From an uncultured Gemmatimonadales bacterium (GTDB lineage: Bacteria > Gemmatimonadota > Gemmatimonadetes > Gemmatimonadales > GWC2-71-9): 64,000 bases of DNA. The notes under the pieces are model-generated. The model made no database searches and had not been told where the DNA came from. It was given only the letters and a program-made list of their open reading frames with translations. The stretch lies in NCBI GenBank assembly GCA_963798915.1, contig CAWCVB010000010.1, positions 86,092 through 150,091 on the forward strand. The letters run 5' to 3'. A program made the position numbers and the translations under genes. Shown here in pieces: positions 2,500 through 48,293 of this stretch (position 1 is the stretch's first letter; every line of letters begins with the position of its first letter).

Positions 2500-4446
<1,947 letters not shown>

Positions 4447-4454
4447 GGGGCCGC

Positions 4455-6401
4455 CTAGATCTGGATTTGCGCCCCCAGCTCGACCACCCGATTGGGCGGC
4501 AGCCCGAAGAAGGCCGTCGCCGAGCGGGCATTCCGCGTCATGACCACGAAGAGCCGCTTCCGCCAGTAGGTCATCCAGCGATCGCCGGCCGCGCCGCTGG
4601 CCCCGTGGCGGAAATGCGTGGCGATCAGCGTCTCCCGCCCAAGAAAGAACGAGGTCTGCATGATGCTGACCAGCCCCGGTGAGCCCTTGATGTCGCCGTC
4701 ATCAAGCCGTCGGAGGACGGCCGGCACATTGGGCGTTTCCATGAAGCCGGTGCGCACAATAACCTGGAAGAAGCCTGCGCCGAGATCCCGGCTCTCGATG
4801 CGGTCGCGCTCGTAGACCGTCGGTACTTCCTCGGTGATGACGGACATGAGAATGACGCGCTCGTGCAGCACCTTGTTGTGCTTCAGGTGGTGCAGCAGCA
4901 CCGGCGGCGCCACACCGGTGGCGCTGGTCATGAAGACCGCGATCCCGGGCACACGGGCGGGCTTGCGCCGCTCGATGTCCTGCAGGAAGAGCGAGAGCGG
5001 GAGGCTGTTCTGCTGCACGATGTCGCCCAGCTTGTCCCGGCCGCGTTTCCAGGTAGTCATCAGGGTATAGACCGCAGCCGCAACGGCCAGCGGGAACCAG
5101 CCACCTTCCTCGATCTTCACAATGTTTGCCGAGAAGAAGGCAACGTCCACGACCAGGAACAGCCCGGTCAGCAGCCCCGCATTGAGGCGGCTCCAGTGCC
5201 AGCGGTCCCGCGCCACCCGATGAAACAGCAGGGTGGTGATGATCATGGTGCCGGTCACGGCAATGCCGTATGCCGCGGCCAGATTGGACGTGTTCCGGAA
5301 GCCGAGCACCAGGAGGATGCAGGCCACGCCCAGGGCCGAGTTGACTTCGGGAATGTAGATCTGGCCAACCTCGGTATGCGAGGTGTGCACAATCGTGACC
5401 CGGGGACTGTAGCCGAGTTGCACGGCCTGCCGCGTGAGCGAGAAGGCGCCCGAGATGAGCGCCTGCGATGCGACGATCGCGGCGAACGTCGCGATGACAA
5501 TCATGGGGTACTGGAACCAGCCCGGCACCAGTTCGTAGAACGGGTTGACCGCCAGTGCCGGGGTTTCCAGCAGCATGCCCGCCTGGCCGAAGTAGTTGAG
5601 CAGCAGCGCCGGCAGCGCGAGGCCGAACCACGCCACCCGGATGGGGCGCTTGCCGAAGTGACCCATGTCGGCGTACAGCGCCTCACCACCGGTGACGACG
5701 AGCACCACCGCGCCAAGGATCAGGAAGCCCGCGAGGCGGTCCCGAATGAACAGGTCAATGGCGGCCCACGGGTTGAGGGCGGCCAGCACGCCCGGGTGCA
5801 TGGCGATGCCGCGCACGCCGAGGCACGCGATCGACACGAACCAGACGATCATGACCGGGCCGAAGAAGCGTCCGATCCGCGCCGTCCCGTGGCGCTGGAA
5901 CCAGAACAGAGCTCCCAGAATCATGGCGGCAATCGGGATGACCAGGTGCTGGAGCGCTGGCGCCTTGACCCGCAGGCCTTCCACCGCCCCCAGCACCGAG
6001 ATCGCGGGCGTGATGACGCCGTCACCGTAGAGCAACGCGGCGCCGAACAGGCCGATGCTGATCAGCACCCAGTGCCCCTTGCCCCGTCCGCCACGCGGGC
6101 GCACCAGTGCCAGCAGGGCAAGGATGCCACCCTCGCCCCGGTTGTCGGCCCGCATGACAAATCCGATGTACTTGAACGAGATGACGAAGGCGAGCGACCA
6201 GAACACCAATGAGAGCACGCCGAGGATGTTGTCGGGCGTCGGCGGAATGCTGTGATGTCCGGTGAACGCTTCCTGCAGCGCGTACAATGGACTGGTCCCG
6301 ATATCCCCGTACACGACGCCGAGCGCCCCGAGCGAAAGTCCGGCCAGGGCCTTGCCGGTAGGATGCTCCTTCTCGTGAGCGTGACTGACGGAGTGGCTCA
6401 C
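4455..6401 (-). CDS. kup: Potassium uptake protein Kup
   Basis: GVVYGDIGTSPLY, DNRGEGG, GDGVITPAISVL, TGGEALYADMGHFG; GTG 6401 overlaps the VKOR stop (GTGA). Confidence 0.95.
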   Translation of the reverse strand: MSHSVSHAHEKEHPTGKALAGLSLGALGVVYGDIGTSPLYALQEAFTGHHSIPPTPDNILGVLSLVFWSLAFVISFKYIGFVMRADNRGEGGILALLALVRPRGGRGKGHWVLISIGLFGAALLYGDGVITPAISVLGAVEGLRVKAPALQHLVIPIAAMILGALFWFQRHGTARIGRFFGPVMIVWFVSIACLGVRGIAMHPGVLAALNPWAAIDLFIRDRLAGFLILGAVVLVVTGGEALYADMGHFGKRPIRVAWFGLALPALLLNYFGQAGMLLETPALAVNPFYELVPGWFQYPMIVIATFAAIVASQALISGAFSLTRQAVQLGYSPRVTIVHTSHTEVGQIYIPEVNSALGVACILLVLGFRNTSNLAAAYGIAVTGTMIITTLLFHRVARDRWHWSRLNAGLLTGLFLVVDVAFFSANIVKIEEGGWFPLAVAAAVYTLMTTWKRGRDKLGDIVQQNSLPLSLFLQDIERRKPARVPGIAVFMTSATGVAPPVLLHHLKHNKVLHERVILMSVITEEVPTVYERDRIESRDLGAGFFQVIVRTGFMETPNVPAVLRRLDDGDIKGSPGLVSIMQTSFFLGRETLIATHFRHGASGAAGDRWMTYWRKRLFVVMTRNARSATAFFGLPPNRVVELGAQIQI

Positions 6402-6829: not shown

Positions 6830-7509
6830 TGTGCGGACTTGGCCGCAGTCAGCGAATCCACCAGCTGCTTGAGCTGGTCATAGCTCATCGCGTTGTAGAG
6901 GCGGCCTCCGATGAGAAAGGTGGGCGTGCCGTTCACGCCCAGCGCCACTCCCTCCTGATAGCTCGCCTCGATCCGCCCGGCGAAGCGGGCCGAGGTCATG
7001 CAGGCGTCATACTTGTCCACGTCGAGCCCGATGATATCAGCATACTTCCGGAACTGCTTTTCGGCCCCGCCGCCCGACCAGTCGGTCTGGCCCTCGTACA
7101 GGAGCGTGTGCATGGGCCAGAACTTGCCTTGCTCATTGGCGCAGGCCGCGGCATGATCGGCCAGGCGCGCGAACGGATGAATGCTCGAGAGCGGAAAGTC
7201 GCGATACCGCCAGCGGACCTTGCCGGTCTGGATCAGTCGCGCGCGGACGTCTGGAAAGGTCACGATGTCGTAATTGGCGCAGCCGGGGCACTGGTAATCG
7301 GCGTATTGCGTGATCTCGACCGGCGCCGAGTCGGAGCCCAGCAGGTAGCCCCGGAATCCGGCTGTGTCCGACGGGAGCACCACCACGTTTGCCGGGATGC
7401 TGGTTGTTGATCGCCTGGACATCTGCCAGCCGAGAAAGCCGAGACCGATGACCCCCACCGCGCCGATCGTAAGATAGAAGCCCTTCATTCCGTTGGGCGC
7501 TGCCGCCAT
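6826..7509 (-). CDS. DsbA-family thiol-disulfide oxidoreductase
   Basis: N-terminal anchor, YADYQCPGC, RDFPL, GVNGTPTF. Confidence 0.88.
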   Translation of the reverse strand: MAAAPNGMKGFYLTIGAVGVIGLGFLGWQMSRRSTTSIPANVVVLPSDTAGFRGYLLGSDSAPVEITQYADYQCPGCANYDIVTFPDVRARLIQTGKVRWRYRDFPLSSIHPFARLADHAAACANEQGKFWPMHTLLYEGQTDWSGGGAEKQFRKYADIIGLDVDKYDACMTSARFAGRIEASYQEGVALGVNGTPTFLIGGRLYNAMSYDQLKQLVDSLTAAKSAQ

Positions 7510-7790
7510 GGTTCGTCATCCTCCGGCTCATCAGTGAGAAAATCCGGCTCTCGGGTCGCTTCATCGACGATCCGACGATTGTCCGCCGTCTCGGGCGTGT
7601 CGTAGGTCTGCCGCACTTCGTAATGAAACAACTCGCTGCGGAGCTCGCCCATCAATCGGAGCAATTCGGGAACTGCCGCGAGCAGTTGATCGTTCTTCTC
7701 AAGTTCGGTAATGCGTCCCGACAGCCGCCGCAGCAGTTCCTTCAGTCGTTCGGCCCGGTCCTTGCCATAGATTTCGTCGTGTTCGGTCAT
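7485..7790 (-). CDS. Hypothetical helical protein (101 aa)
   Basis: MTEHDEIYGKDRAERLKELLRRL...; coding-like composition, overlaps the dsbA start. Confidence 0.65.
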   Translation of the reverse strand: MTEHDEIYGKDRAERLKELLRRLSGRITELEKNDQLLAAVPELLRLMGELRSELFHYEVRQTYDTPETADNRRIVDEATREPDFLTDEPEDDEPWRQRPTE

Positions 7791-7925
7791 GGGATCTACC
7801 GCCTGATGGGCACCAAATGTAACCGAACCGGGCAGAAATCGCCGTTTCCCACTCGTTTGCACCAAAAGGTGCAACCTCACTATATTGCGGCCTCGAATCA
7901 TCAGTCTCAAAGAAAAGGAAGGTGC

Positions 7926-8192
7926 ATGAGCAAGAAGACGAATCGACGTGCAATGCCCTCGGCGTCCCCCTCGGTGTTCGAGCAGGCCCGGGACGAGTTA
8001 TTCAGCCATATCCTCCGCTGCGGCGTCATCGACGCGCTGCCGGAGCACCAGAAGGACTGGTTCGACGATACCATGGGGTATCTGACCGACCGGTACGAGG
8101 AGCTGACCGCCGAGGAATTGAACCAGCTGCGTGTGCTGGGTGAGCGCTACTGCCAGCCGGTGCGCCGGGCCGAGCCCGTCGGCACCGCCTGA
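7926..8192 (+). CDS. Hypothetical small protein (88 aa)
   Basis: AAGGAAGG upstream of ATG 7926; MSKKTNRRAMPSASPSVFEQARDELFSHILRCGV...; followed by a strong hairpin. Confidence 0.75.
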   Translation: MSKKTNRRAMPSASPSVFEQARDELFSHILRCGVIDALPEHQKDWFDDTMGYLTDRYEELTAEELNQLRVLGERYCQPVRRAEPVGTA

Positions 8193-8212
8193 CACTCGCC
8201 ACGATCGTCGAA

Positions 8213-8260
8213 GGCCGGTGAAGCCGGGGCGCGACCCGTTGCGCCCCGGCTTCACCGGCC
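8213..8260. terminator. Perfect 20-bp hairpin between convergent genes
   Basis: GGCCGGTGAAGCCGGGGCGC-gacccgtt-GCGCCCCGGCTTCACCGGCC. Confidence 0.7.
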
Positions 8261-8263
8261 GCT

Positions 8264-8704
8264 TCATTTCCGGCCCGGAAACCATCGCGTCCGCCATCCC
8301 ACGGCAAGGCGCACGCCTCCGCCCAGTCCCGCCTCCACTATCCAGCCGTGCGAGGCCCCCGGATTGGTCTCTGCCCCCACGATCAGTTCCAGATAACCGC
8401 GCGTGGCGTTCTGCTGCTCCACCGCCAGGCCACCGCCGCCATACATCCCCACGCCATGCAGCAGCCCCGGGTTGAGCAGAAAGTGTCCGGTCAGCTCCGC
8501 ACGAGCGCCGACACCTCCGGCCCGTCCACCGAGCGCGGCGGCCAGGTTCACGCGAGTTCGATGGGTGACGCGCAGCGCACCAACAATGGCGCCACCGACC
8601 AGCGACGAGTCGCGAAGCAGCGCGAGCGTCTCGATCCCGAACTCCCGCGGCGCCTGCGCGGAAAGCATCGCGGGGAGCATGAGCAGGGTAAGCCAGGGAA
8701 TCAC
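8264..8704 (-). CDS. Hypothetical exported, possibly small beta-barrel protein
   Basis: Signal-like WLTLLMLPAMLSAQ, Gly-rich alternating strands, aromatic residues near the C-terminus; start uncertain. Confidence 0.55.
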   Translation of the reverse strand: MIPWLTLLMLPAMLSAQAPREFGIETLALLRDSSLVGGAIVGALRVTHRTRVNLAAALGGRAGGVGARAELTGHFLLNPGLLHGVGMYGGGGLAVEQQNATRGYLELIVGAETNPGASHGWIVEAGLGGGVRLAVGWRTRWFPGRK

Positions 8705-8774
8705 GAAGAGACGAAGAACACGAAAGCACGAACGGTGGCCAATTCGTGTTTTCGTGCCCTTCGTGTATCCGTGC

Positions 8775-9182
8775 CTACACCAGCTGGATTTCATGCGTCA
8801 CGGCGATGTCCGGCGCGAGCGATGCCAGCACGGAACAATATTTTTCGACGGAGAGATTGACCGCGCGTTCAGCCTTGAGCATGTCCAGCCCCTCGCCGGC
8901 GATCTCGAAGACGTAGTGCATTTTTTCGAATCGGCGCGGCTCGCGTTCGCGGCGTTCCCCGTGGGCGAGCACCCGCAGCGACGTGAGCGTCACGCGCATT
9001 TTCTCCAGGATCAGCACGACATCGGTCGCGGCACACGCGGCACCGGCAAGCAACAGTGCCACCACGGGGCTGGGTGCCTCCTTGGCGTTGCCATCCAGCA
9101 GGATGGTCGGACGGTCAGGGGCGCCGCCGCGGAAGCGCAGCTCCCCTTCCCAGGCGATTTCAGCATCGCGTGTCAGGCTCAT
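8775..9182 (-). CDS. OsmC/Ohr-family protein
   Basis: PSPV..LL.AGAAC and SVEKYCSV conserved cysteines. Confidence 0.88.
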   Translation of the reverse strand: MSLTRDAEIAWEGELRFRGGAPDRPTILLDGNAKEAPSPVVALLLAGAACAATDVVLILEKMRVTLTSLRVLAHGERREREPRRFEKMHYVFEIAGEGLDMLKAERAVNLSVEKYCSVLASLAPDIAVTHEIQLV

Positions 9183-9204
9183 TGTCGGTTTCCCTGTGAC
9201 AGGA

Positions 9205-9762
9205 TCAGTGCCCAAGCGGGTGGCGCGCGCTGGGGGCAGCACGCTGGTAGTCCCAGATGGCGTAGAGCGCTACGGCCGTCGTGGCCCAGGCCATCGGCCT
9301 CAGGTAGCTCGAGTTCAGCAGAAAGGCGAGCAGCGTGAGGACCTGCGCCACGGTCACCGCCTTGCCCCCGGCGCGAGCGGGAATCGCCGCCGGCCGGCCA
9401 CCGGCCATGGTCATGACGAAGGCCACGGCCGCTACGATATCGCGCAGCAGGACACCGCCAATCTCGAACGGTTCCAGCCGGCCGGAGAGCGCCACCACGG
9501 CGAAGGCGCATCCCATGAACAGCTTGTCGGCGAGCGGGTCGATAAATGTCCCGAAACGCGAGGCTCCGAAGCGCCGCGCGATGAAGCCATCAAGCAAGTC
9601 ACTGGCAGCGGCACCCGCCAGAATGACCAGCCGCACTGCCTGACTGGGCACCAGCAGAAAGCCCAGCGCCATGGGAATCCGGAGGATACTGAGGATGTCC
9701 GCCACAGTGATGCGACGCTCTTGCTCGCCCTTCCGGGCCGGACTAGCTTCTGCCAACTTCAC
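9205..9762 (-). CDS. CDP-alcohol phosphatidyltransferase
   Basis: DLLDGFIARR...G..IDPLADK signature. Confidence 0.88.
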   Translation of the reverse strand: MKLAEASPARKGEQERRITVADILSILRIPMALGFLLVPSQAVRLVILAGAAASDLLDGFIARRFGASRFGTFIDPLADKLFMGCAFAVVALSGRLEPFEIGGVLLRDIVAAVAFVMTMAGGRPAAIPARAGGKAVTVAQVLTLLAFLLNSSYLRPMAWATTAVALYAIWDYQRAAPSARHPLGH

Positions 9763-9855
9763 CCTCGCGGGTCATGGAACGTCGCTCATGACGACCTGTC
9801 GTGAGCGTGCCGAGCGACAACGATACCCGTGTCCGGAAGTACTCTTCAAGGCGGG

Positions 9856-33963: not shown

Positions 33964-36921
33964 CTATTCCAGCGCCGCTACCTCCACCCTGATCCGATCC
34001 ACATCGGCTCGCAATGAAGGTTCGGGAGTGGCGCGGAGCGCCAGGTAATGGCCGTACGCCTGCCGCGCCTCCGCCTTATTGCCCGTGAGCTTGGCGAGCC
34101 GGCCCTCCTCGCGGAAGAGCGTAGACAGGGCCACCTGAATCCGCTGCGCCCCCGCATCCGCCACCGGCGCGCGGCGCCGGACGGCAGCGAGGGCCTTGTC
34201 GTATTCGCCGCGCCTGGAATAAAGATCCGCCAGTGTCAGATTGCCGAGCGTCACCGCCCATGAATTCCTGAAAGGATCCAGTACACTGGGCGAGTCCAGC
34301 TCGGCGATGAGCCGAGCGGCTTCCGGGCTCCGCCGCGCAACGGCCAGTCGGGCCGGCAGAACCAGCAGGCATACGTCGCCCAGTTCTTCACGTTGCGGCC
34401 CTGTCGTCAGGCGCAGCCGCGCGATGAGCGGTGGAAGCTGATCCCACTGGTTGCGCCCTGCCCGCCAGAGGCCCACCGCACAGATCGCGAGTTGCTCCGC
34501 CAGATCGGGCGGCGTGCGTGCGTCATCCAGATTTTCAATACGCGCGGTGAGGCGAGCTACGGTTTCTGCCGCCAAGGTGGTGTCGCCATCCCAGAACAGT
34601 GCGGCGAAGACCTGACTGAAATCGTGATAGAGTCCGGTGGCTTCCGCACCGGCGGCCATGCGCGCCACGCCGGCAGCTTCCAGTGGACGGCCACGATTGA
34701 GGGCGAGTTCTTCCCGGCGCTGGTAGGCCCGGACGAGATCGCCGGCAACCCCGGCCCGCCGCTGGAGCTCCGTGGTGGCATCCACCGCGTCCTCAATCCG
34801 GATCCCTTCCAACTGCGCGGCGGAGAGCAGGCGGTTGAGCGTCGCATCGGTCTGATCCGGAATTCTGGCATGGAACGCGGCCAGCTGGAGCGAGTCGCCG
34901 AGGGACGCCGCAATCAGCCAGCGATAGAACTCGGCAAGGTCACCATCAGTGTCCAGCGCCCGATACCGCGCGCCCAGCCGCCGCACAATTGCGGTGTCGC
35001 CAAGGCTGGCCTCGATGTCCAGCAGGTGGCCCAGCGCCGGCACATACGTCGAGTCTATCTCAAGCGCCTTGCGGTAGGACGCCGCTGCCCGGTCCCGCAC
35101 CCCAGGCAGGCCGGCCCACGACTGCTGGTTCAGTACCCAGCCCAGCTGGAACCAGATGTCCGGGCGGTCAGGCGCGCGCGCTGCCACCGCATCGCAGATT
35201 TCGTAGTCGGAGATGGAATCTGGCACCGGCGTCGCTGCCAGGCGTCGGTCGAGACATGCCCCGAACTGCCGATCCAACGGAGGCAGGGTTGCCGCGCGTG
35301 ATAGGAGCCAATCCGAAATCCGACTTCCCGCGGGGTCCTTCACCATCTCGCTCCCCATGATCAAGCCGACAGCCGCGAGCGTTAGCGAGGAGTCCTGGCT
35401 GAGTGCTTCCTTGTAATGCGCCAGCGCGACGCTGAACCTCCCGCTGGCAAAATCCTGCTCGCCCGCAATGAATGCGCGCGCCGCGGGGAGTGACGCATGC
35501 TGGATCATGGACAATCGCTCGTCAGGCTGACCGGCGAGCACTGCCATCAAGCCGGCTGCAACCCGGTCCGCGAGCGCCAGCAGACTGTCCCGGCTTCCGC
35601 TCACATTTGAAATTCGCGCCAGAACCCTTCCGTCGCTGGCGGCCTCGATCGTCGCCGTCACCGCCAACTGCTGGCCCGAGGTAAGCACCTGCCCGCGCAG
35701 CAGGCGCGGACTGCCGAGCGCACGGGCGAGGGTGCTCATGTCACGAGCCCCCAGGGTGGCTGGAGTGAGTTTCAATCGGTTGAGCGCGGCCCTCACTGCC
35801 GAGGGATCCATCGCCCGCGGCCCACCCAGGCCGGTGAAGCGGTCCGCCAGGAGATTCGACAGCGCCGACCCGGCTGAACTGGCGGCGGAATCGTCAGGGT
35901 CCGCCGCGGCGAGTGGAAGGATGGCGACGCGATTCATGTCAAGCGGGAGCCCGCGCGACCGGCGGGCCAGGACCTGCCACCCGATGAGCGTGCCAACCAC
36001 CAGCAGCACCAGCGCTGCCACCCACGGCCAGCGCTTGCGAGACGCAGGCAGTGCCGGGGCCATGAGCGAGGAACGGCTCCAGGCCTGGAATGACTCGCCT
36101 CGAAGCACGCGGGCAAGTTCGCCTGCGTCGGGAAACCGGTCGGCAGGATTCTTGGCCAGTGCCCGGTGCACCGCAGCCTCGATGATTTCCGGCACCGAGT
36201 CGCGGACGGCACGGATACTGGGCACCCGCTCGACGGCATGACGCGCGAAGACCTGTTGCACCGACGCGCCGGTGAACGGTGGCTCGCCCACCAGCATCTC
36301 GTAGATGACACATGCGAGACTGTACTGATCGGAGCGCCCATCCAAACGGGTCGAGCTTCCGATCTGCTCGGGGCTCATGTACATCGGCGTACCGACCACG
36401 AGTCCGGACGACGTCAGCACTGCCTGGTCCTGCTCCAGCGCGTGCGCCAGACCGAAATCCGCCACCAGCGCGTGGGCGCCGCTCAACAGAATGTTGCCGG
36501 GCTTGATGTCCCGGTGCACCACACCCTGATGGCCGGCGTACTCCAGTGCGTCGGCGACTTCCGCGCCAATCCGGAGCGCATCCTCGATGGCTAGCTGTCC
36601 TTCGCGCCTGATCCGGACCGCCAGCGATTCTCCCTCGACGACCGGCATGACATAGTACAACAGGCCATCCGCGTCACCGCTGTCATGCAGTGGCAGGATG
36701 TTGGGATGATTCAGCCGGGCGGCCACCCGGATTTCGCGCAGAAATCGTTCGTGACCCAGCGAGGCGGCCAGATCGGGTGAGAGAGCCTTGATGGCGACTT
36801 CGCGCCCATGACGCTCATCCCACGCCCGATACACGACCGCCATGCCGCCGCGTCCCAGCTCCCCCCTGACCGTATACCGACCGGCCAGGGCGGCGCCGAG
36901 CCGCGCTTCGAGTTCACTCAT
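33964..36921 (-). CDS. Membrane-anchored Hanks-type Ser/Thr kinase with TPR-like C-terminal region
   Basis: LGRGGMAVVY, VAIK, HRDIKPGN, DFG, GTPMYMSPEQ; TM WPWVAALVLLVVGTLIGW; helical repeats; ATG 36921 overlaps the upstream stop. Confidence 0.9.
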   Translation of the reverse strand: MSELEARLGAALAGRYTVRGELGRGGMAVVYRAWDERHGREVAIKALSPDLAASLGHERFLREIRVAARLNHPNILPLHDSGDADGLLYYVMPVVEGESLAVRIRREGQLAIEDALRIGAEVADALEYAGHQGVVHRDIKPGNILLSGAHALVADFGLAHALEQDQAVLTSSGLVVGTPMYMSPEQIGSSTRLDGRSDQYSLACVIYEMLVGEPPFTGASVQQVFARHAVERVPSIRAVRDSVPEIIEAAVHRALAKNPADRFPDAGELARVLRGESFQAWSRSSLMAPALPASRKRWPWVAALVLLVVGTLIGWQVLARRSRGLPLDMNRVAILPLAAADPDDSAASSAGSALSNLLADRFTGLGGPRAMDPSAVRAALNRLKLTPATLGARDMSTLARALGSPRLLRGQVLTSGQQLAVTATIEAASDGRVLARISNVSGSRDSLLALADRVAAGLMAVLAGQPDERLSMIQHASLPAARAFIAGEQDFASGRFSVALAHYKEALSQDSSLTLAAVGLIMGSEMVKDPAGSRISDWLLSRAATLPPLDRQFGACLDRRLAATPVPDSISDYEICDAVAARAPDRPDIWFQLGWVLNQQSWAGLPGVRDRAAASYRKALEIDSTYVPALGHLLDIEASLGDTAIVRRLGARYRALDTDGDLAEFYRWLIAASLGDSLQLAAFHARIPDQTDATLNRLLSAAQLEGIRIEDAVDATTELQRRAGVAGDLVRAYQRREELALNRGRPLEAAGVARMAAGAEATGLYHDFSQVFAALFWDGDTTLAAETVARLTARIENLDDARTPPDLAEQLAICAVGLWRAGRNQWDQLPPLIARLRLTTGPQREELGDVCLLVLPARLAVARRSPEAARLIAELDSPSVLDPFRNSWAVTLGNLTLADLYSRRGEYDKALAAVRRRAPVADAGAQRIQVALSTLFREEGRLAKLTGNKAEARQAYGHYLALRATPEPSLRADVDRIRVEVAALE

Positions 36922-39280
36922 GCGACTGATCTGCCACGATGGGCCAACCCTCGGATTCGAAGAACGGATGGCATGCGCGGCCCGGCCTCTCCAGATCCTG
37001 CTCCAGCAGAGCAACCCCCAACCTTCCCTTGTACAGCGACAAGTGCCCTGCCGCACTCCGCGCAAACGGCTTGGCATCGCGCTCCAACAGCAGGCGAGCG
37101 CGGTCCAGCCAGCGGGCATCGCCGGTCATCCGGTGAAGCGCGAGCAGGGCATAGCTGCGGCCTGCCAGTCCGCAGCACAAGTCGGGAAACCGGTCCGGTG
37201 CTTCCCATGCGCTCCACCCGCACCGTTCGGCCAGAACCGCATATCGGTCATTCCGAGTCAACTGAAAGGCAATATTCCAGAGATGTACCAGCCCGGCCGG
37301 CCCGTTGCACCACCCCGGAAGATCATGATGACTGCCAGTTCCGGGCACGTGGGGGAACTGGATGCCGCGGCCCCGAGGTTCCGCCAACCGTCCCAGCGTT
37401 GCCAGCGCCCGCGCGATGGCCTGAGAGGGTGCCTGCCGCGCAACCCGACACCAGCGGAGCATCGCGTAGAGCACTCCTCCCCAGCCATGGGCAATGCCGG
37501 CGTTGTCCAACGGGCCGCCCGCTGGAAAGGACACGAATTCCGCCAGCGTCGCACCCAGCCGGCGCATCAGCTCCTCTCCCAGGGCGCGCAGCAGCACGCG
37601 CGATGGAGCAAGCTCGGCCGGAGCCGCCTCCAGCAGCATCACAGCGCCCAACAGCACGCCCGCAATGCCATGGCCCAGTTCAACCCGCGTCTCGGCGGCA
37701 ATATCCAGTGCGCAGAAGCGCTTGATTGCAGCAGCCATCCGTGTGAGCTGGCCAGATGCCTGGGCGAGGTGCGCGTCCACCAGAATCAGGCCAGAACCAG
37801 TAAAATATGGCGTCACGCTGCCGGTGACATCCGCTTCCAGTCCTTGACGGGGACTCAGGAATGCGCCGGAGCCACGGCTTGCCTGCTTTGCGGTTTCGCA
37901 CCAGCCGGCCGCCGCCGAGAGCAGTTCCGGCTCGTTGCGCAGGACAGCCAACCGGTACAACCCGAACGCCGTACCGGCCATGCCATGCATCAGCGAGCAG
38001 CGCGGCGCCCCGATCATGCGAGCCCACTCCGGTGGAGAGCGCCGAGCCAATGTGCGCAGCCACGCGTCTGCCCGACTTTGGGACTGGATACGCACCGGCG
38101 TGCCAACCGGCGGAACTGTGCAACTCGCCAACGCATCGGCGAAGTGGCGCACCGAGCGAAATCGATCCGAGGCCTTCTGTGCCAGGGCCCGGCCGAGCAC
38201 CGCCTCGAGCCCGGGCCACGGTGCAGCACCGTGGGCGGCGAATGGCAGTGGCCGCGCTCTGGCCAGCGCCTGAAGCATCACCTCGCGGTCCTGGGAGTCT
38301 CCCACATGCGGGGTGCCTGCGGCCATGTGGTACAGGAGCGCTGCAAGCGCAGATTGCTCGCCCACGGCGGAGAGCGGCGGTGGGGAAGAGCCAGCCAGCA
38401 TGGCTTCGGCAAACTGGGGATCGGAGTACGGCAGCACCACGCCGCGATCCACCGGCCGTCGTCCCGGCGTCTTGCTGCACCCGAAATCGAGAATCGTAAT
38501 CCGGCCCTGAGCGCTCACCAGAAGGTTTCCGGCGTGCACATCCCCGTGCAACACGCCCCTCGCGTGGAGGCGCGCATAGGCGCGCGCGATGGAGACCAGC
38601 AGGTGGAACAGCGGCGCGCGACCTGCATGACCGGCGCTTCGAAGCTCGCGCGCCCGTACCAATGGAGAGACTCCGCTGCGCCAGCCCATCACCAGAAATG
38701 GGCGGCCTTCGAGAGTGCCGGCAGACCTGAGTGCGGGAGCGCCACGGCCGCCCAGCAGTTCCAGCACATGCTGTTCCTGACGCAGGGCCCGACGCAGCCG
38801 GCGCTCGGAGCCGAGGCGGGCGATCTTCATTGCCACGACCCGCCCGCGGGAATCCCGTGCCTGATAGAGTTCGGAGTCTTCGAGCACCATCACATGGCGG
38901 ACCACCACAAATCCGGCAATCCTCTCGCCCTTGTCCAGCGATGGCATGATACGGGAGGCATCGGGCGATCCCGCAGGCACCAGGAAGCGAGCCTCATAGC
39001 AATCGCGGAGCAGCGGGAATGAATCGGTCAGCGCCTGTTGCGGATCGCCATTGCTGCTGTGGGCGATGATCGCATCCGCGATGCGGGTAGGCGTCTGGAA
39101 GTGGCGAAGCAGTTCGGCAGCGTCCCGGCTGACCACTCTCGAAGACGCCCGGACCCGCGCCCGACCCAGCGCAAATCCGCCCTCCACGCGAGGCAGGCGC
39201 CGGCGCAGCCCGTCGGGAAGTTCGGCCAGCGGCGTCAGCAGGACGTCCCCGGGCAGGATCAGTGCGTCAGTGATCGCCAT
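36914..39280 (-). CDS. Lanthionine-synthetase-like fusion: putative RRE-like N-domain + Ser/Thr kinase + LanC-type zinc cyclase
   Basis: Kinase VAMK, HGDVHAGN, DFG; LanC GxxG repeats LMHGMAG, LGHGIAG, GIAHGWGG, GWCNGPAG, DLCCGLAG, LYKGRLG. Confidence 0.85.
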   Translation of the reverse strand: MAITDALILPGDVLLTPLAELPDGLRRRLPRVEGGFALGRARVRASSRVVSRDAAELLRHFQTPTRIADAIIAHSSNGDPQQALTDSFPLLRDCYEARFLVPAGSPDASRIMPSLDKGERIAGFVVVRHVMVLEDSELYQARDSRGRVVAMKIARLGSERRLRRALRQEQHVLELLGGRGAPALRSAGTLEGRPFLVMGWRSGVSPLVRARELRSAGHAGRAPLFHLLVSIARAYARLHARGVLHGDVHAGNLLVSAQGRITILDFGCSKTPGRRPVDRGVVLPYSDPQFAEAMLAGSSPPPLSAVGEQSALAALLYHMAAGTPHVGDSQDREVMLQALARARPLPFAAHGAAPWPGLEAVLGRALAQKASDRFRSVRHFADALASCTVPPVGTPVRIQSQSRADAWLRTLARRSPPEWARMIGAPRCSLMHGMAGTAFGLYRLAVLRNEPELLSAAAGWCETAKQASRGSGAFLSPRQGLEADVTGSVTPYFTGSGLILVDAHLAQASGQLTRMAAAIKRFCALDIAAETRVELGHGIAGVLLGAVMLLEAAPAELAPSRVLLRALGEELMRRLGATLAEFVSFPAGGPLDNAGIAHGWGGVLYAMLRWCRVARQAPSQAIARALATLGRLAEPRGRGIQFPHVPGTGSHHDLPGWCNGPAGLVHLWNIAFQLTRNDRYAVLAERCGWSAWEAPDRFPDLCCGLAGRSYALLALHRMTGDARWLDRARLLLERDAKPFARSAAGHLSLYKGRLGVALLEQDLERPGRACHPFFESEGWPIVADQSHE

Positions 39281-40373
39281 GCTGTCCCATCCCGCCGGCG
39301 GTGCCGACCACGACCGGGCTCCAGCTTTCAACATCGACAGCATCCAGCGACACGCGATCCATCGCGAATCGCCACGCCGGGACGATGCAGCCGCGGTCTC
39401 GAGCGGCCTGCGCGAGCGCACTCGCGAGGCGCTGGGTGAGCCAGGCGCGCCAGCTCTCGTCGCCAGCCCAGGGCGCTGCGCGGCCGCGGCCTGCCGGATC
39501 CACACCCCACGATATCAGCGCCGAGTCAAACAACTGTCCGGTGAACGGGACTCCCTGTGCTGCCACGCCGGCCAGATCACGGGAGAGTCTGCGGGCAGCC
39601 TGCAGCATGCCGCGCCGCGAACTGAAGTAGAGCACCAGTTTATCCGGCCGCAGAATGTTGTAGAGATCCCGTCCCACCTTCATCGAGATTGCACCGGCCA
39701 CACGCGCAGCTGCGTGCAGCGACGGTCGCACCAGCTCAGGCATCGGACTCAGGTACAGCTTCCAGATCCTGCGGCCCGGACGAGGCAGCGGTGTACGGTC
39801 CCATGAGAGCCATGCGCCACCGGCTTCAGGGTCCGACGCCTGAAGCCGTGACCCGTGCGGCATGTCGCGCAGCAGTTCGCGCCCCAGCGCTTCCGCGTCG
39901 GGATACCGCTCCCGCCAGGCCGGCGTGGCCGGCAGCGTGTTGAACGCGTAGAGCAGCCGTGCCGATGCTGACACGTCCGGCAACTCGAACGCGGCGGTCT
40001 GCCGCAACGCGTCCAGCGAAAGCGTGGCCAGCGCCGAGGAGGGAGCGGGTCCGTCAGCGTTGGGGAAAAAGATCCGGTGTGCCGCGCCTCCGCTCACGTA
40101 ACGCCGGCCCGCACGGATTTCGAGGACTCCATCCAGCACCAGCGCCTGAAGTGAGTGAATCGGAATCGAAGGGGGCGCCAGTCGTGGGTGCGCCAACTCG
40201 ACAAAGAGCCGGGCGGTCGAGCGGTTCACCACCCGCGGCGCCCGGAAGTCTCCTGCCTCGGGAGTGAGCAGCCCACCGAACGCAGCGTGTGCCGCCTGGC
40301 GCACCAGCCACGCCGGCATCGGCTCGGGCAAGGCCTCCGGCGCCAACAGGCGGTAACCTGGCGCGGCCCGCAT
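39267..40373 (-). CDS. HopA1-like (LanY/TvaD-type) phospho-Ser/Thr lyase candidate
   Basis: WKLYLSP, MKV, RPDKLVLYF, GVPFT, SWGVDP, ESWR pattern; overlaps the kinase-LanC gene. Confidence 0.65.
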   Translation of the reverse strand: MRAAPGYRLLAPEALPEPMPAWLVRQAAHAAFGGLLTPEAGDFRAPRVVNRSTARLFVELAHPRLAPPSIPIHSLQALVLDGVLEIRAGRRYVSGGAAHRIFFPNADGPAPSSALATLSLDALRQTAAFELPDVSASARLLYAFNTLPATPAWRERYPDAEALGRELLRDMPHGSRLQASDPEAGGAWLSWDRTPLPRPGRRIWKLYLSPMPELVRPSLHAAARVAGAISMKVGRDLYNILRPDKLVLYFSSRRGMLQAARRLSRDLAGVAAQGVPFTGQLFDSALISWGVDPAGRGRAAPWAGDESWRAWLTQRLASALAQAARDRGCIVPAWRFAMDRVSLDAVDVESWSPVVVGTAGGMGQHGDH

Positions 40374-40419
40374 TTTGGCTGAGTGACAGAATGATTTGGA
40401 CACAGCGATGAACGCGGCA

Positions 40420-40457
40420 CCACCCATCCGGCGCACCGGCGTGCGCCGGATGGGTGG
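40420..40457 (-). terminator. 17-bp perfect stem-loop between precursor and modification genes
   Basis: CCACCCATCCGGCGCAC-cggc-GTGCGCCGGATGGGTGG. Confidence 0.7.
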
Positions 40458-40475
40458 CTGAGCGTCGAGTGGTGG

Positions 40476-40688
40476 TCAGGCCAACGCGGCGTCGAGCTGG
40501 AGCCGCAGGTCCTTGAGACTTTCCGCGGCCAGGCCCTTGGGTTTGGGCTTCGCGGTGGTGTTGGTGCACGCGCCGCACTTGGTGGGCAGCTCGCAGTTAT
40601 CCGCGCCGGCTCCGTTCGCCCAGGCCAGTTCGCCATTTTCCATTGCCTGCACTGGCATCATTATGTCCCTGCTCTCGAACCTGCTCAT
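40476..40688 (-). CDS. Putative RiPP precursor peptide (70 aa)
   Basis: GGAGG 6 nt before ATG; central CELPTKCGACTNTT; first gene of the lyase/kinase-LanC operon. Confidence 0.8.
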   Translation of the reverse strand: MSRFESRDIMMPVQAMENGELAWANGAGADNCELPTKCGACTNTTAKPKPKGLAAESLKDLRLQLDAALA

Positions 40689-40872
40689 GGTCAGCCTCCG
40701 ATCGCGTAATACTGCCCGGGCCCGCCGAGATGGCTGGTCCGTTCAAGGTCCGTTCTATTGAGAAAGGTGTGCCCCTTGGATATACCGGGCGACTTGAACG
40801 CCGTCAATGCCACCCTTGCCCGCCGGCCAATCCGGCGGTAAGTCACCTGCCGCCAAGCCAAGGGAGCCTGAC

Positions 40873-42153
40873 GTGGCCGACACCGCCTTCGAGGTCCATA
40901 GCATCGCCTTTGCCTATCCCGGCAATCGCGAGGCAATCCCGCTGCGCGCTCCGGCAACCAATCACCTGGTCAGCGAACACCCCGAATGGATCCGGAACGA
41001 GCGCTCGGCTCCCGTGGCATATGTGCGGGGCGCCCGGCCTCACGTTCAGGTGGTTTTCCGGCGCCAGGCGGGGCCAAGGAGGATCACCTGCGTGGTCGGT
41101 GCCACGGCGCGAGGCGCCACCGCAGGGGTGCAGGCCCGCCGTGTCCGGCTGGAGTTTGACCGAAGCGGCCTGTCACGGCCGGTGCGATTCCAGCTCTCGC
41201 GCACTTTGCCGAAGGTGGTCGGGATCCGACGGATCCGCTGGGCCTGGTTCCGGCTGGTAGAGGGGAAGCGCCTTCCCGCCGGCGGCTCAGCACATGAGAT
41301 CTGCCTTGCGTGGAGGCGGCCACGACCGCCAGCCGACTGGGCCGGCCCCGATTCGTTTCCCCGCAGCCAACCGTGGGTCTATGTGCCACTCATGCAGTGG
41401 ACCTGCGCCTGGGCCGCGGGACGGAATGATCCCAAGGCCATCTGCGACACCATCCTGCGCAAGCTCCCGGCTTCCGGCCTGCGCTACGCTCGGCCAGCAT
41501 GGGACGTTCGGACCATGCTCACGGCGGGGGGCGGGTACTGTGGTGGCTGGTATCGCATGTTCCAGGCAATGGCCGGAGCCCAGGGTGTGGAGGTCAAGCG
41601 CCGTGCCTTCATGGTCCACTGGCAGAATGAGAGCCGGCAGCGGGCCCGATGGTGCGCCATCGTCGTGCAGCACGCAGGGATCAACCGCGACGCGGTGGTG
41701 GAGGCGCCAAGCACCTTCCATGACGTCCGCCAGCGGCCGGTGCGCGGCGCACCGGTGCGCGTCACCACGCGGGCGCGGTACCGCTTCTGGGGTGCGCCAG
41801 GCAAGGTGAACGACGGCCACTGCCTCAATTTCCTTCGGTACAAGGGCGCCTGGCACCTGTATGATGCCTGTTTCCTCTCGGAGTCGGTCCGCCTGCCCGG
41901 CTTCTCCTTGCCTCGCTCCAATTCGACCCGTGCCGTGCCGGTCGGCCGGCTCGGTGCCTTTCGGACGCGATACCTGGATCGGGCCGTGAATTACATGCTG
42001 GGGTCATTCCGGAATGATGGGAAGCTCTATCGCACCATCCACCCCGACCCGGCCACGAAGCAGTTCGGCAAGGCGACGGTCACCAATGGATTGAGTATTC
42101 GGACGACGCTCGTGCCCGACCCGGGACAACTCATCTCCTTCTACTGGATCTGA
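40873..42153 (+). CDS. Hypothetical protein with transglutaminase-like Cys-His-Asp triad
   Basis: AGGGAG before GTG 40873; GGYCGGW, DGHCLNF, HLYDAC in transglutaminase order. Confidence 0.6.
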   Translation: MADTAFEVHSIAFAYPGNREAIPLRAPATNHLVSEHPEWIRNERSAPVAYVRGARPHVQVVFRRQAGPRRITCVVGATARGATAGVQARRVRLEFDRSGLSRPVRFQLSRTLPKVVGIRRIRWAWFRLVEGKRLPAGGSAHEICLAWRRPRPPADWAGPDSFPRSQPWVYVPLMQWTCAWAAGRNDPKAICDTILRKLPASGLRYARPAWDVRTMLTAGGGYCGGWYRMFQAMAGAQGVEVKRRAFMVHWQNESRQRARWCAIVVQHAGINRDAVVEAPSTFHDVRQRPVRGAPVRVTTRARYRFWGAPGKVNDGHCLNFLRYKGAWHLYDACFLSESVRLPGFSLPRSNSTRAVPVGRLGAFRTRYLDRAVNYMLGSFRNDGKLYRTIHPDPATKQFGKATVTNGLSIRTTLVPDPGQLISFYWI

Positions 42154-42155
42154 CC

Positions 42156-42515
42156 ATGCCGCTAGCCCATCAGCACCTGCGACGCTGCCTGGCAGGCGGC
42201 CTGATCCAAGGCCGGCGCGCGACCTGGCAGCACGCGCTGGCGTTGTTGCACGCCGTCGCCGACGATCATTCCACCGAGTCCGAGAGCGTCCTGCGCGAGG
42301 TCGCGCTCTACGACGGCGTGCTCCAACTCGATACTACCGCCGGGCTGCCCCACGCCATGTCGCCGGAGGATGCAATGCGTTCCCTGGCGATCCAGGTGCT
42401 CGCGCAGTGGGACCGTAAGCGCCATGGCGACGTGATCCGGGCGGTGGGACGGAACGCGCGCAATGACGTGGTGGCAGCGATTGCGGGGGACAGGCGAAGC
42501 TGGGCTGAAGGCTGA
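42156..42515 (+). CDS. Hypothetical helical protein (119 aa)
   Basis: ATG 2 nt after the upstream stop; stop codon supplied by the heptamer array. Confidence 0.6.
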   Translation: MPLAHQHLRRCLAGGLIQGRRATWQHALALLHAVADDHSTESESVLREVALYDGVLQLDTTAGLPHAMSPEDAMRSLAIQVLAQWDRKRHGDVIRAVGRNARNDVVAAIAGDRRSWAEG

Positions 42516-42729: not shown

Positions 42730-42780
42730 GCGTCCGCTCGGACCGTTTTGGCTCCGGGCGTTTGTCTTGTGGAGTCTCGA

Positions 42781-46469
<3,689 letters not shown>

Positions 46470-46473
<4 letters not shown>

Positions 46474-48293
46474 GCCTCCGTGACCTGCTGCAGGACGGCC
46501 GGGTGCACGTGGTGGATGGCGCCATGGGAACCATGCTCTACGCCAGGGGCATCTTCCTCAATGTCTGCTACGACGAACTGAACCTCCGGCAGCCTGACGT
46601 CGTCCGCGACGTGCATCGCGACTACGTCAGGGCCGGCGCCGAACTGATCGAGACCAACACCTTCGGCGCCAATCCACTGAAGCTCGCCAGCTGCGGGCTC
46701 GCCAGCGACACCGAACTCATCAACCGGACCGCTGCGACGCTGGCACGCGAGGCAGCCGCCAGCCGCGCGCTCGTTCTCGGCGCCATCGGGCCCCTGGGGG
46801 TGCGGGTGGAGCCATTCGGTGAGTTGGGACTGGACGAGGCCAGCGAGGCATTTGCCCGGCAGGTTCTGGGGCTCATCGAAGGCGAAGTGGACGGCTTCAT
46901 CCTGGAGACGTTCAGCGACGTCTCCGAAATCGGGGCCGCCATGCGTGCAGTGCGCCGCCATTCCGACCTGCCGATCATCGCACAGATGACCATCGGCACC
47001 GACGGACAGACCCACTATGGCACCGGCCCGGCGGCCTTTGGCCCGCAGCTGGTTGAATCCGGCGCGGACGTCGTCGGCGTCAACTGCTCGGTTGGGCCCC
47101 ACGGGGTGCTGGAGGCAGTGGAACTGCTGGCGGCAGCCGTCAACGTACCGATCTCCGCCCAGCCCAATGCAGGGCTTCCCCGTGAAGTGGGCGACCGCAA
47201 GATCTACATGGCCAGCCCGGAGTACATGGCGGGGTATGCGCGGCGGATGGTTGAGGCAGGCGCCAAGCTGGTGGGCGGCTGCTGCGGCACCACGCCTGAG
47301 CATATCAAGTCCATTGCCAGCTTCGTCCAGAGCGTCTCGCCCCGGCATCGCTATGCTGCCCCAGCGGCGGTCGCGCACGACCAGGCCCACCAGCCCGTCC
47401 CCCTGGGAGAGCGGAGTGAGCTGGGCGCCAGGCTCGCCAGCGGGCAATTCGTGACGACCGTCGAGATCGTGCCGCCGAGGGGCATCGATCCGGCACCGAT
47501 GCTGGCGCAGGTGCGGGCTCTCAAGGCCGCCGGAGTGAACGCCGTCAATGTGCCTGATGGTCCCCGCGCCCAGAGCCGCATGGGCGCACTGTTGTCGGCC
47601 CTGCTCATCCAGCGCGAGGTCGGTCTCGAGGCGGTCGTCCATTACGCATGCCGCGACCGCAACCTCCTGGGCATGCTTTCGGATCTGCTCGGTGCGGCGG
47701 CGAGCGGGCTCAACAACCTGCTCATCATCACTGGCGATCCACCCAAGATGGGCCCGTACCCTGATGCGACCGCAGTGTTCGACATCGACTCGATTGGTCT
47801 GACCAACCTGGTGAGTCGCCTGAATGCCGGCCTCGACCCAGGCGGGAACGATCTGGGCAGCACGACGCGCTTCGTGATCGGCGTCGGGGTCAACCCGGCG
47901 GCTCCGGACCCGGAGCGCGAACTCAAGCGATTCGGCTGGAAGGTGGAGGCAGGAGCAGAGTTTGCCGTAACGCAGCCAGTCTTCGATGTGGAGCAGCTGG
48001 ACCGCTTCCTGGCCAGCGCCGCACCGTTCGGGCTGCCGATCATCGCCGGCATCTGGCCGCTCATCTCGCTCCGCAACGCGGAATTCCTGGCTAACGAGGT
48101 GCCTGGTGTGACGGTGCCTGATGCCATACTGGATCGGATGCGGCGAGCCAGCGAACTGGGCAAGGAGGCGGCGCTCGCGGAGGGTGTCGCCATAGCGCGG
48201 GAGATGCTGCAAGCGGCGCGGGAGCGCCTGGCGGGTGTCCAGGTCTCTGCCCCGCTCGGCCGGGTGCCGGTGGCGCTGGAAGTGCTTCGGTGA
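46470..48293 (+). CDS. Bifunctional homocysteine S-methyltransferase / methylenetetrahydrofolate reductase (YitJ-like)
   Basis: DGAMGT, GVNC, GGCCGT; C-terminal [20 protein letters not shown]. Confidence 0.92.

Follow-up and report, generated by a model that had tools for sequence, protein, structure and literature searches.

What is the 70-residue peptide encoded on the minus strand of this stretch, and by what chemistry might the cysteines and threonines in its middle be joined? The stretch comprises 64,000 nucleotides of contig CAWCVB010000010.1 (positions 86,092 to 150,091) from an uncultured Gemmatimonadales bacterium. It is referred to as the window, and positions are given within it. 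An initial annotation, made from the letters of the DNA, described the open reading frame (ORF) as a precursor with a leader, an internal core of CxxxT motifs and a follower. On balance, we think it probable that the ORF is a LanA-type substrate of two enzymes encoded next to it, here called X368 and KC788, and that the three genes form a module for a peptide that is made by the ribosome and modified after translation (RiPP). The neighboring genes encode a phospho-Ser/Thr lyase and a kinase joined to a LanC domain, which makes lanthipeptide-type chemistry the natural reading. Coordinates are collected in Table 1.

The probable precursor gene and the two adjacent enzyme genes

Minus-strand translation of 40476-40688 gives 70 residues, identical to the peptide of the initial annotation. 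The three Cys (C32, C38, C41) and four Thr (T36, T42, T44, T45) all lie within residues 32-45 and are followed by KPKPKG. The N-terminus is MSRFESRDIMMPV. The C-terminus, LAAESLKDLRLQLDAALA, is an amphipathic segment that ends in LRLQLDAALA. Judged by its alignments and codons, the 70-residue ORF is a genuine, conserved gene. Four close homologues share 66-77% identity with it and keep the reading frame, and their alignment holds 44 invariant columns. Codons differ from those of three Gemmatimonadales loci at 12-19 of the 45-47 identical residues, and purifying selection thus appears to act on the precursor protein. A profile search of 1.84 billion proteins returned 11 matches at E ≤ 0.001. 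Eight are peptides of 60-78 residues with the same layout; the remaining three are long repetitive proteins (609-1941 residues) matched in multiple short stretches. A spurious ORF was also considered and is ruled out by the close homologues, the invariant columns and the synonymous codon changes. Pfam and NCBIfam yielded no model for this precursor, nor for any of 10 diverse precursors; the coiled-coil matches seen were at chance level. The family pattern described below recovers one convincing ORF in the window, the precursor itself; three other matches fall inside long unrelated ORFs.

The precursor heads an operon. It is followed on the same strand by the lyase gene X368 and then by the kinase-cyclase gene KC788. 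The true start of X368 is the ATG at 40373, and its stop overlaps the ATG of KC788, a layout typical of translational coupling.

KC788 matches the Pfam families Pkinase/APH and LANC_like (PF05147, 74.6 bits). Its best NCBIfam match, to the class IV LanL model (NF038150), scores 132.6 bits where the cut-off is 650. This match begins at profile position 191, i.e., the lyase part is absent. The LanKC model (NF038151) gives 73.8 bits against a cut-off of 575. The kinase residues K152, H245/D247 (H-x-D loop) and D265 (DFG) are each kept in 64 of 65 complete KC homologues, as are H598 and the zinc-ligand-position residues C658, C702 and C703 of the LanC domain. The third ligand position is thus a Cys ("CCG" motif) where the usual residue is His. 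Such a third Cys ligand is known from ProcM-type class II enzymes. When the sequence was compared with the PDB, the cyclase was nearest to eukaryotic LanCL1/2 and the kinase to mycobacterial PknA/PknB, and neither CuvL nor ThurKC was among the best 60 matches. Given these nearest relatives, the KC fusion appears distant from the characterized class III and IV enzymes. Members of the family are named in public databases only as "lanthionine synthetase LanC family protein" or "serine/threonine-protein kinase".

The lyase missing from KC788 would therefore be provided in trans by X368, a LanY-like protein. Searches of X368 itself against Pfam and NCBIfam returned no matches. An AlphaFold2 model made from 27 family members was of good quality (predicted local distance difference test score, pLDDT, 87; predicted template modeling score 0.88). 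When this model was searched against the PDB with Foldseek, the top ranks were all phospho-Ser/Thr lyases, with LxmY (9dk1_B) first (E 7.8e-7). Further matches were HopA1 (E 5.9e-6), the lyase domain of CuvL, SpvC, OspF and ThurKC. Among the 27 family members, Pfam finds HopA1 in five (best E 7.6e-4, not in this copy) and RamC_N in four. K205, K232, R242 and K245 of X368 are invariant. A protein atlas, independent of Foldseek, places X368 with HopA1 clusters (score 0.93). The predicted fold and these matches strongly support X368 as a stand-alone phospho-Ser/Thr lyase of LanY-like type.

Both enzymes have an additional domain at the N-terminus. In the homologue alignment, the first ~105 residues of KC788 match the remainder of the protein in conservation, and their model (pLDDT 82) consists of strands followed by three helices. 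Foldseek matched this model to TigE, TbiB1 with its leader, PqqD, MccB, TglHI and ThcOx, and also to another lasso B1 protein, PbtF, LynD and MibB, with three Rickettsia methyltransferases interspersed. Judging from their descriptions, we take 9 of the 12 best rows to be RiPP enzymes with a RiPP recognition element (RRE). Pfam finds ThcOx in 6 and PqqD in 2 of 26 KC N-terminal domains. By profile-profile comparison, the N-terminus of X368 (~70 residues) is homologous to the same domain of KC788 (hhalign, 95% probability, E 3.6e-8). From this homology and the Foldseek matches, X368 and KC788 each probably carry an RRE (PqqD-like) domain.

A mechanism can be proposed from these parts. The N-terminal F-x-x-R-D-[LI]-M-x-x-V stretch of the precursor would bind the RRE-like domains as a beta-strand. 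The kinase of KC788 would phosphorylate the core threonines T36, T42, T44 and T45, and the X368 lyase would eliminate the phosphates to leave dehydrobutyrines (Dhb). The zinc site of the LanC domain (C658, C702 and C703, with H598) would then add the three Cys thiols to form methyllanthionine rings. The C-terminal L-x-x-L-R-x-Q-L helix is, by analogy, most likely a second conserved handle that docks on the kinase or lyase. Passages of a study of ThurKC describe how its N-terminal leader, in which an LELQL motif is critical, binds as an amphipathic helix where the kinase N-lobe meets the lyase (PMC10604976).

Table 1. Features of the precursor locus, with positions in the window and the basis of each assignment.
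Feature	Position	Strand	Basis
Ribosome-binding site GGAGG, 6 nt 5′ of the ATG	40695-40699	-	Direct sequence reading
Precursor gene (70 residues plus stop)	40476-40688	-	Translation, homologue alignments, family-wide flank motifs, synonymous changes
Leader motif, residues 1-13	40650-40688	-	Translation and alignments
Cys/Thr core, residues 32-45	40554-40595	-	Translation and alignments
KPKPKG linker, residues 47-52	40533-40550	-	Translation and alignments
Amphipathic follower helix (putative), residues 53-70	40479-40532	-	Translation and alignments
Perfect 18-bp GC-rich stem-loop between precursor and lyase gene, without U-tract	40419-40458	-	Computed fold
X368, 368 residues: RRE-like N-terminal domain and HopA1/LanY-type phospho-Ser/Thr lyase domain (predicted)	39267-40373	-	AlphaFold2, Foldseek, Pfam on relatives, hhalign
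KC788, 788 residues: RRE-like (~1-105), Hanks-type Ser/Thr kinase (~125-390), LanC-like cyclase (~430-780)	36914-39280	-	Pfam, NCBIfam, model
Ser/Thr kinase with TPR repeats, next gene after KC788 (ORF as listed; start uncertain)	33964-37119	-	Pfam Pkinase and TPR
Divergent pair p448 (40807-42153) and p119 (42156-42515)	40807-42515	+	tblastn conservation

The module across genomes and the layout of the core

X368 relatives are abundant, with 152 matches at E ≤ 0.001. One genome per species was scanned for 185,579 species. Of the 380 pattern-matched stretches found, 342 encode an X368 relative, and 80 loci were kept (numbers with the prefix L below). The record titles name Gemmatimonadota, many Acidobacteriota (Terriglobia, Thermoanaerobaculia, Vicinamibacteria, Bryobacterales), Eremiobacterota, Chloroflexota, Armatimonadota, Actinomycetota, Alphaproteobacteria and Bacillus (Bacillota). 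A KC homologue lies downstream of the X368 homologue in all 80 loci, at most 200 nt away in 78 of them.

Precursors were sought with a loose pattern that requires an [RK]-D-L-M-V-like motif in the N-terminal part, one or more Cys and then an L-x-x-L-[RK]-x-x-L-like helix. Of the 80 loci, 64 have such an ORF immediately upstream, on the strand of the enzyme genes. Elsewhere in the same loci, on both strands, the pattern gave 43 matches, 2 of which are genuine extra copies. By eye we found 11 more precursors, in L002 and L068 (both cut by contig ends), L008, L025, L032, L047, L063 (split over two frames), L066, L071, L072 and L073. L027 and L041 have less than 430 nt of upstream sequence. The division into leader, core and follower made in the initial annotation thus recurs beside the same enzyme pair in these 64 and 11 loci.

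The shared layout is an FxxRDLMVxVLP-like head, a hypervariable core of Cys, Ser and Thr, and an LxxL[RK]xQLxxxL helix. Conservation extends to positions that the pattern does not specify: F at -4 (42/65), V at +5 (41/65), P at +7 (36/65) and the helix L at +11 (51/65). Precursors are 55-283 residues long (median 154) and contain 2-32 Cys. In 64 cores, Thr makes up 12.8% of residues and Cys 11.3%. Internal repeats are common in the cores; their units include C-T-P-S-P-P, C-T-x-C-T-D-G and longer sequences. The helical tails cluster in length at 12-19, 26-33 and 53-80 residues. On a plasmid of Paenibacillus peoriae (NZ_CP011513.1; L081, 4912-5664), a 250-residue "hypothetical protein" consists of a helix and three in-frame leader-core-helix units and is encoded directly upstream of X368-type and LanC-family genes. 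The repetition of the whole unit suggests that both flanks serve as recognition or processing signals for each core.

An alignment of the Gemmatimonadota-type subfamily covers 20 peptides. C38, T42 and L65 are invariant, and M1, F4, D8, M10, C41, N43, K49, L58 and L61 are conserved in at least 90%. The initial annotation had picked out F-x-x-x-D-[IL]-M and L-x-x-L-R-x-Q-L as motifs that homologues should share, and both are conserved in these peptides. Its three CxxxT motifs fared unevenly. C38-x3-T42 is invariant (20/20); C32-x3-T36 was seen by eye in 8 of 20, and C41-x3-T45 is not fixed. From the alignments, the conserved unit of the core is better described as C-x-x-C-T-N in the subfamily and as CxxC[ST] or C-T-[ND] across the family. 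CxxC[ST] occurs in 33 of the 64 cores against 13.9 in shuffles, and plain CxxC in 35 against 35.3. Relative to Cys, Ser/Thr is enriched at +1 (z 17.4), +4 (z 15.7), -2 (z 10.5) and +3 (z 8.6), although these spacing counts include internal repeats and related sequences and the observations are not independent.

The spacing bears on the direction of the rings, which the initial annotation had suggested to be reversed. T36 is the only Thr N-terminal of any Cys in the precursor. Pairing with an upstream residue is thus possible for at most one of the three Cys, and pairing with a downstream residue for all three. With two or more rings, all but one would have to run from a Cys to a downstream Dhb, e.g., from C38 to T42. 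In the L024 peptide there is no Thr upstream of any Cys. If ring spans are set at 2-10 residues, upstream pairing leaves at least one Cys over in 15/20 subfamily peptides and 55/64 family cores, and downstream pairing does so in 1/20 and 9/64. When spans of up to 25 are allowed, upstream pairing is incomplete in 6/20 and 45/64 and downstream pairing in 1/20 and 5/64. The cores of the family thus tend to open with Cys and close with Ser/Thr, and this layout favors rings from Cys to a downstream dehydro residue if all Cys are used.

Competing readings and relation to known lanthipeptide systems

Several points, the non-independence of the spacing counts among them, weigh against the precursor reading. 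The chemistry is inferred throughout, from dehydration to the thioethers and the direction of their rings. Support for the RRE assignment comes from Foldseek matches of modest E-value (1.8e-3 to ~0.8) and from weak Pfam matches. We did not find a precursor in L035, L039 and L049, which have full upstream sequence. L025 contains, at 2813-3067, a precursor-like ORF whose leader motif and helix flank an (NP)n/(KP)n middle that lacks Cys. The kinase-cyclase match in L025 spans only residues 4-408, and this copy may be decaying. A protease or exporter conserved across the 8 diverse loci surveyed was not found, so the product may not be a processed, secreted peptide. Many precursors have 150-280 residues and a helical tail of 53-80 residues, which is more like a retained coiled-coil domain than a follower to be discarded.

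The last two points lead to a reading in which the C-terminal helix is a retained oligomerization (coiled-coil) domain. The product would then be a cross-linked small protein that stays largely intact and may act inside the cell or on its surface, not an excised peptide. The grouping of the tail lengths is consistent with this, and the Hanks-type kinases found in 31 of the 80 loci hint at a cellular role rather than an antibiotic one. The tail of the Gemmatimonadales subfamily, however, at ~13-18 residues, is not long enough to form a stable coiled coil. The three-unit Paenibacillus precursor implies cutting between units, and an S8 peptidase lies beside a divergent copy on a Bacillus plasmid. 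We give this reading a minor chance of being right.

The module could also be an ordinary class IV-type lanthipeptide cluster. Only the N-terminal part would then be a leader, the KP linker and the helix would belong to the mature product, and rings of the usual direction would join Dhb to downstream Cys, with the other Cys free or in disulfides. LanL is the best NCBIfam match of KC788, and T36-x-C38 or T36-x4-C41 allows one ring of the usual direction. A kinase with a zinc-ligand LanC is what mining pipelines call class III/IV, as stated in parts of Walker (2020, PMC7268733). The shortfall of KC788 against the LanL model and its lack of a fused lyase speak against this reading, as does the scarcity of Thr upstream of Cys here and in L024. 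Moreover, the helix is conserved across phyla next to a hypervariable core, the signature of a recognition or structural element. We consider an ordinary class IV product improbable.

Finally, it is very hard to sustain that the middle is a metal-binding CxxC site of a small metal-handling or redox protein, with the kinase-LanC gene merely regulatory or unrelated: C38-G-A-C41 is a CxxC with a third Cys nearby and a thioredoxin gene lies ~10 kb away, but plain CxxC stands at the shuffle level while CxxC with Ser/Thr is enriched, and metal binding gives no reason for the close linkage of all three genes, lyase and cyclase included.

If the peptide is a precursor, the general features of a lanthipeptide system are present: a core of Cys and Ser/Thr beside modifying enzymes, and a LanC domain with the catalytic His and three ligands. 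The module shares parts with several known classes. Class IV LanL (CuvL, PDB 8CAR/8CAV) likewise has a kinase and a zinc-ligand LanC in one polypeptide, and a separate lyase activity that acts after phosphorylation. KC788 differs from it in that no OspF-type lyase is fused, an RRE-like domain takes the N-terminus instead and the third ligand is Cys. It therefore does not unite lyase, kinase and cyclase in one polypeptide, and it scores below the class IV cut-off.

A stand-alone HopA1-fold lyase with a kinase encoded next to it is shared with class V LanK/LanY (LxmKY, PDB 9DK1; CaoK/CaoY), as sections of PMC9486802 describe them. Class V systems, according to portions of the same source and of PMC10604976, have their APH-type kinase as a separate protein and use a cyclase other than LanC. 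The kinase of the module is instead Hanks-type and fused to LanC, and X368 has the additional RRE-like N-terminal domain. Thus only the lyase of the module is of the class V kind; a separate APH-type kinase and a non-LanC cyclase are not seen.

Class III LanKC (ThurKC, PDB 8SAM) shares dehydration by a kinase and a lyase, and the LELQL of ThurA1 resembles the LRLQL of the precursor. The class III helix, however, is N-terminal of the core and its cyclase is without zinc ligands, whereas here the helix is C-terminal and the ligands are present. KC788 also falls below the NF038151 cut-off, and an N-terminal helical leader is not found. The four-subclass scheme for class III covers three-domain enzymes only, as presented in an excerpt of PMC13504147. 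Class VI is, in the portion of PMC12328550 that treats it, LanKCb of streptococci.

RRE-dependent enzymes (lasso B1, PqqD, MccB, LynD and the class I dehydratase MibB) share the N-terminal PqqD-like fold, here predicted as a winged-helix domain on the modifying enzymes, and the short beta-prone motif at the N-terminus of the precursor is a further likeness. ThurKC, in passages of PMC10604976, is described as binding its leader without an RRE. We found no account in which a kinase-type lanthipeptide synthetase or a LanY-type lyase carries an RRE. The architecture and the two-handled precursor are also not described in the literature covered by a full-text search (subscription-only papers and supplements were outside its scope).

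Cyanobactin precursors of the PatE type have recognition sequences on both sides of the core. The conserved flanks around a variable core and the multi-unit precursors are shared with them, although the enzymes are unrelated to the cyanobactin machinery. Cinnamycin is a lanthipeptide with Cys N-terminal to the dehydro residue. The order of Cys before Thr is the same in our peptide, for which we infer the ring direction.

Mining pipelines label Pkinase plus LanC proteins as class III/IV and seek precursors of 30-120 residues with N-terminal leaders (Walker, 2020, PMC7268733, in part). Clusters of the present kind have thus probably been counted, with their precursors unrecognized. A 2026 peatland survey lists, in the portion concerned (PMC13642348), 73 "class IV lanthipeptide" clusters, which may or may not be of this kind. 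The same portion gives Acidobacteriota as prominent in the community.

We put forward tentatively, as a possibility that goes well beyond the substrate assignment, that the module represents a further architectural class. In such a class, two RRE-bearing enzymes would grip a leader strand and a follower helix and install arrays of reversed rings on C-T-x-x/CxxCT repeats, with protein-sized or multi-unit substrates in many lineages and up to 32 Cys. If so, the products, instead of classical short lantibiotics, could be small proteins stapled by thioethers or multi-core libraries. The module would add a widespread, uncharacterized branch to lanthipeptide biosynthesis, one whose lyase is of class V type, whose kinase-cyclase is of class IV type and whose recognition by RRE is of class I type, parts previously known from separate classes. 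It would also provide a natural example in which conserved handles hold the core from both sides, which bears on substrate recognition in RiPPs and on the engineering of cyclization guided by leader and follower. The layout of the residues puts the formation of reversed rings directly within reach of a test.

Adjacent features and divergent copies

The stem-loop 3′ of the precursor stop has a folding free energy of -54.4 kcal/mol (z -6.1), and none of 200 shuffles was equally stable. A promoter and terminator scan of 40200-41000 returned no sites, and no canonical terminator was scored. In related loci, stems of at least 8 consecutive pairs occur between the precursor and the lyase gene in 40 of 54 gaps (gaps of at least 25 nt). 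The 18-bp stem-loop is probably an element that stabilizes or attenuates the mRNA.

Homologues of the kinase-TPR gene directly follow KC in L001-L006, L009, L022, L024 and L028, and the gene appears to be an accessory in Gemmatimonadota loci. The separate Hanks-type kinases of the 31 loci noted above hint at a regulatory or extra phosphorylation link. The pair p448/p119 adjoins the module only in Gemmatimonadota loci (L001, L003-L005, L009, L022, L024 and L064, by tblastn). No Pfam family was found for either protein beyond a weak Transglut_core match for p448 (E 0.13, in 1 of 6 homologues). In the protein atlas, p448 has Transglut_core rows of 0.78-0.79, and it holds a G-Y-C-G-G-W segment. 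A transglutaminase-like peptidase is a weak lead for p448. At 42748-48293 on the plus strand are a cobalamin-dependent methionine synthase (MetH, a 1241-residue ORF) and then a fused homocysteine S-methyltransferase/methylenetetrahydrofolate reductase (MTHFR) gene. Both appear to be common housekeeping genes that mark the edge of the cluster at this end. A known defense system was considered and rejected: PADLOC gave generic kinase-domain matches only (PD-T4-6, mad6) and none for the peptide, X368, p448 or p119.

Some of the related loci depart from the usual arrangement. A conjugative plasmid of Bacillus paramycoides (NZ_CP152428.1; L082, 627-4262 and 8619-10406) carries the divergent copy of the module mentioned above, and its S8 serine peptidase is encoded divergently. 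A 595-residue protein downstream has Cys-containing repeats of ~45 residues and a follower-like terminal helix; a typical leader motif was not seen in it. In L059 (Bacillus sp. Xin1), one precursor (4580-5065) lies upstream of the lyase gene and another (9601-9825) downstream of the kinase-cyclase gene. The upstream one opens with a follower-like helix ahead of the leader motif. In L032 (Amaricoccus macauensis; 2949-4932 and 7098-9562), the kinase-cyclase gene is apparently split into two ORFs, and the module lies beside a DNA methylase gene and a phage small-terminase gene.

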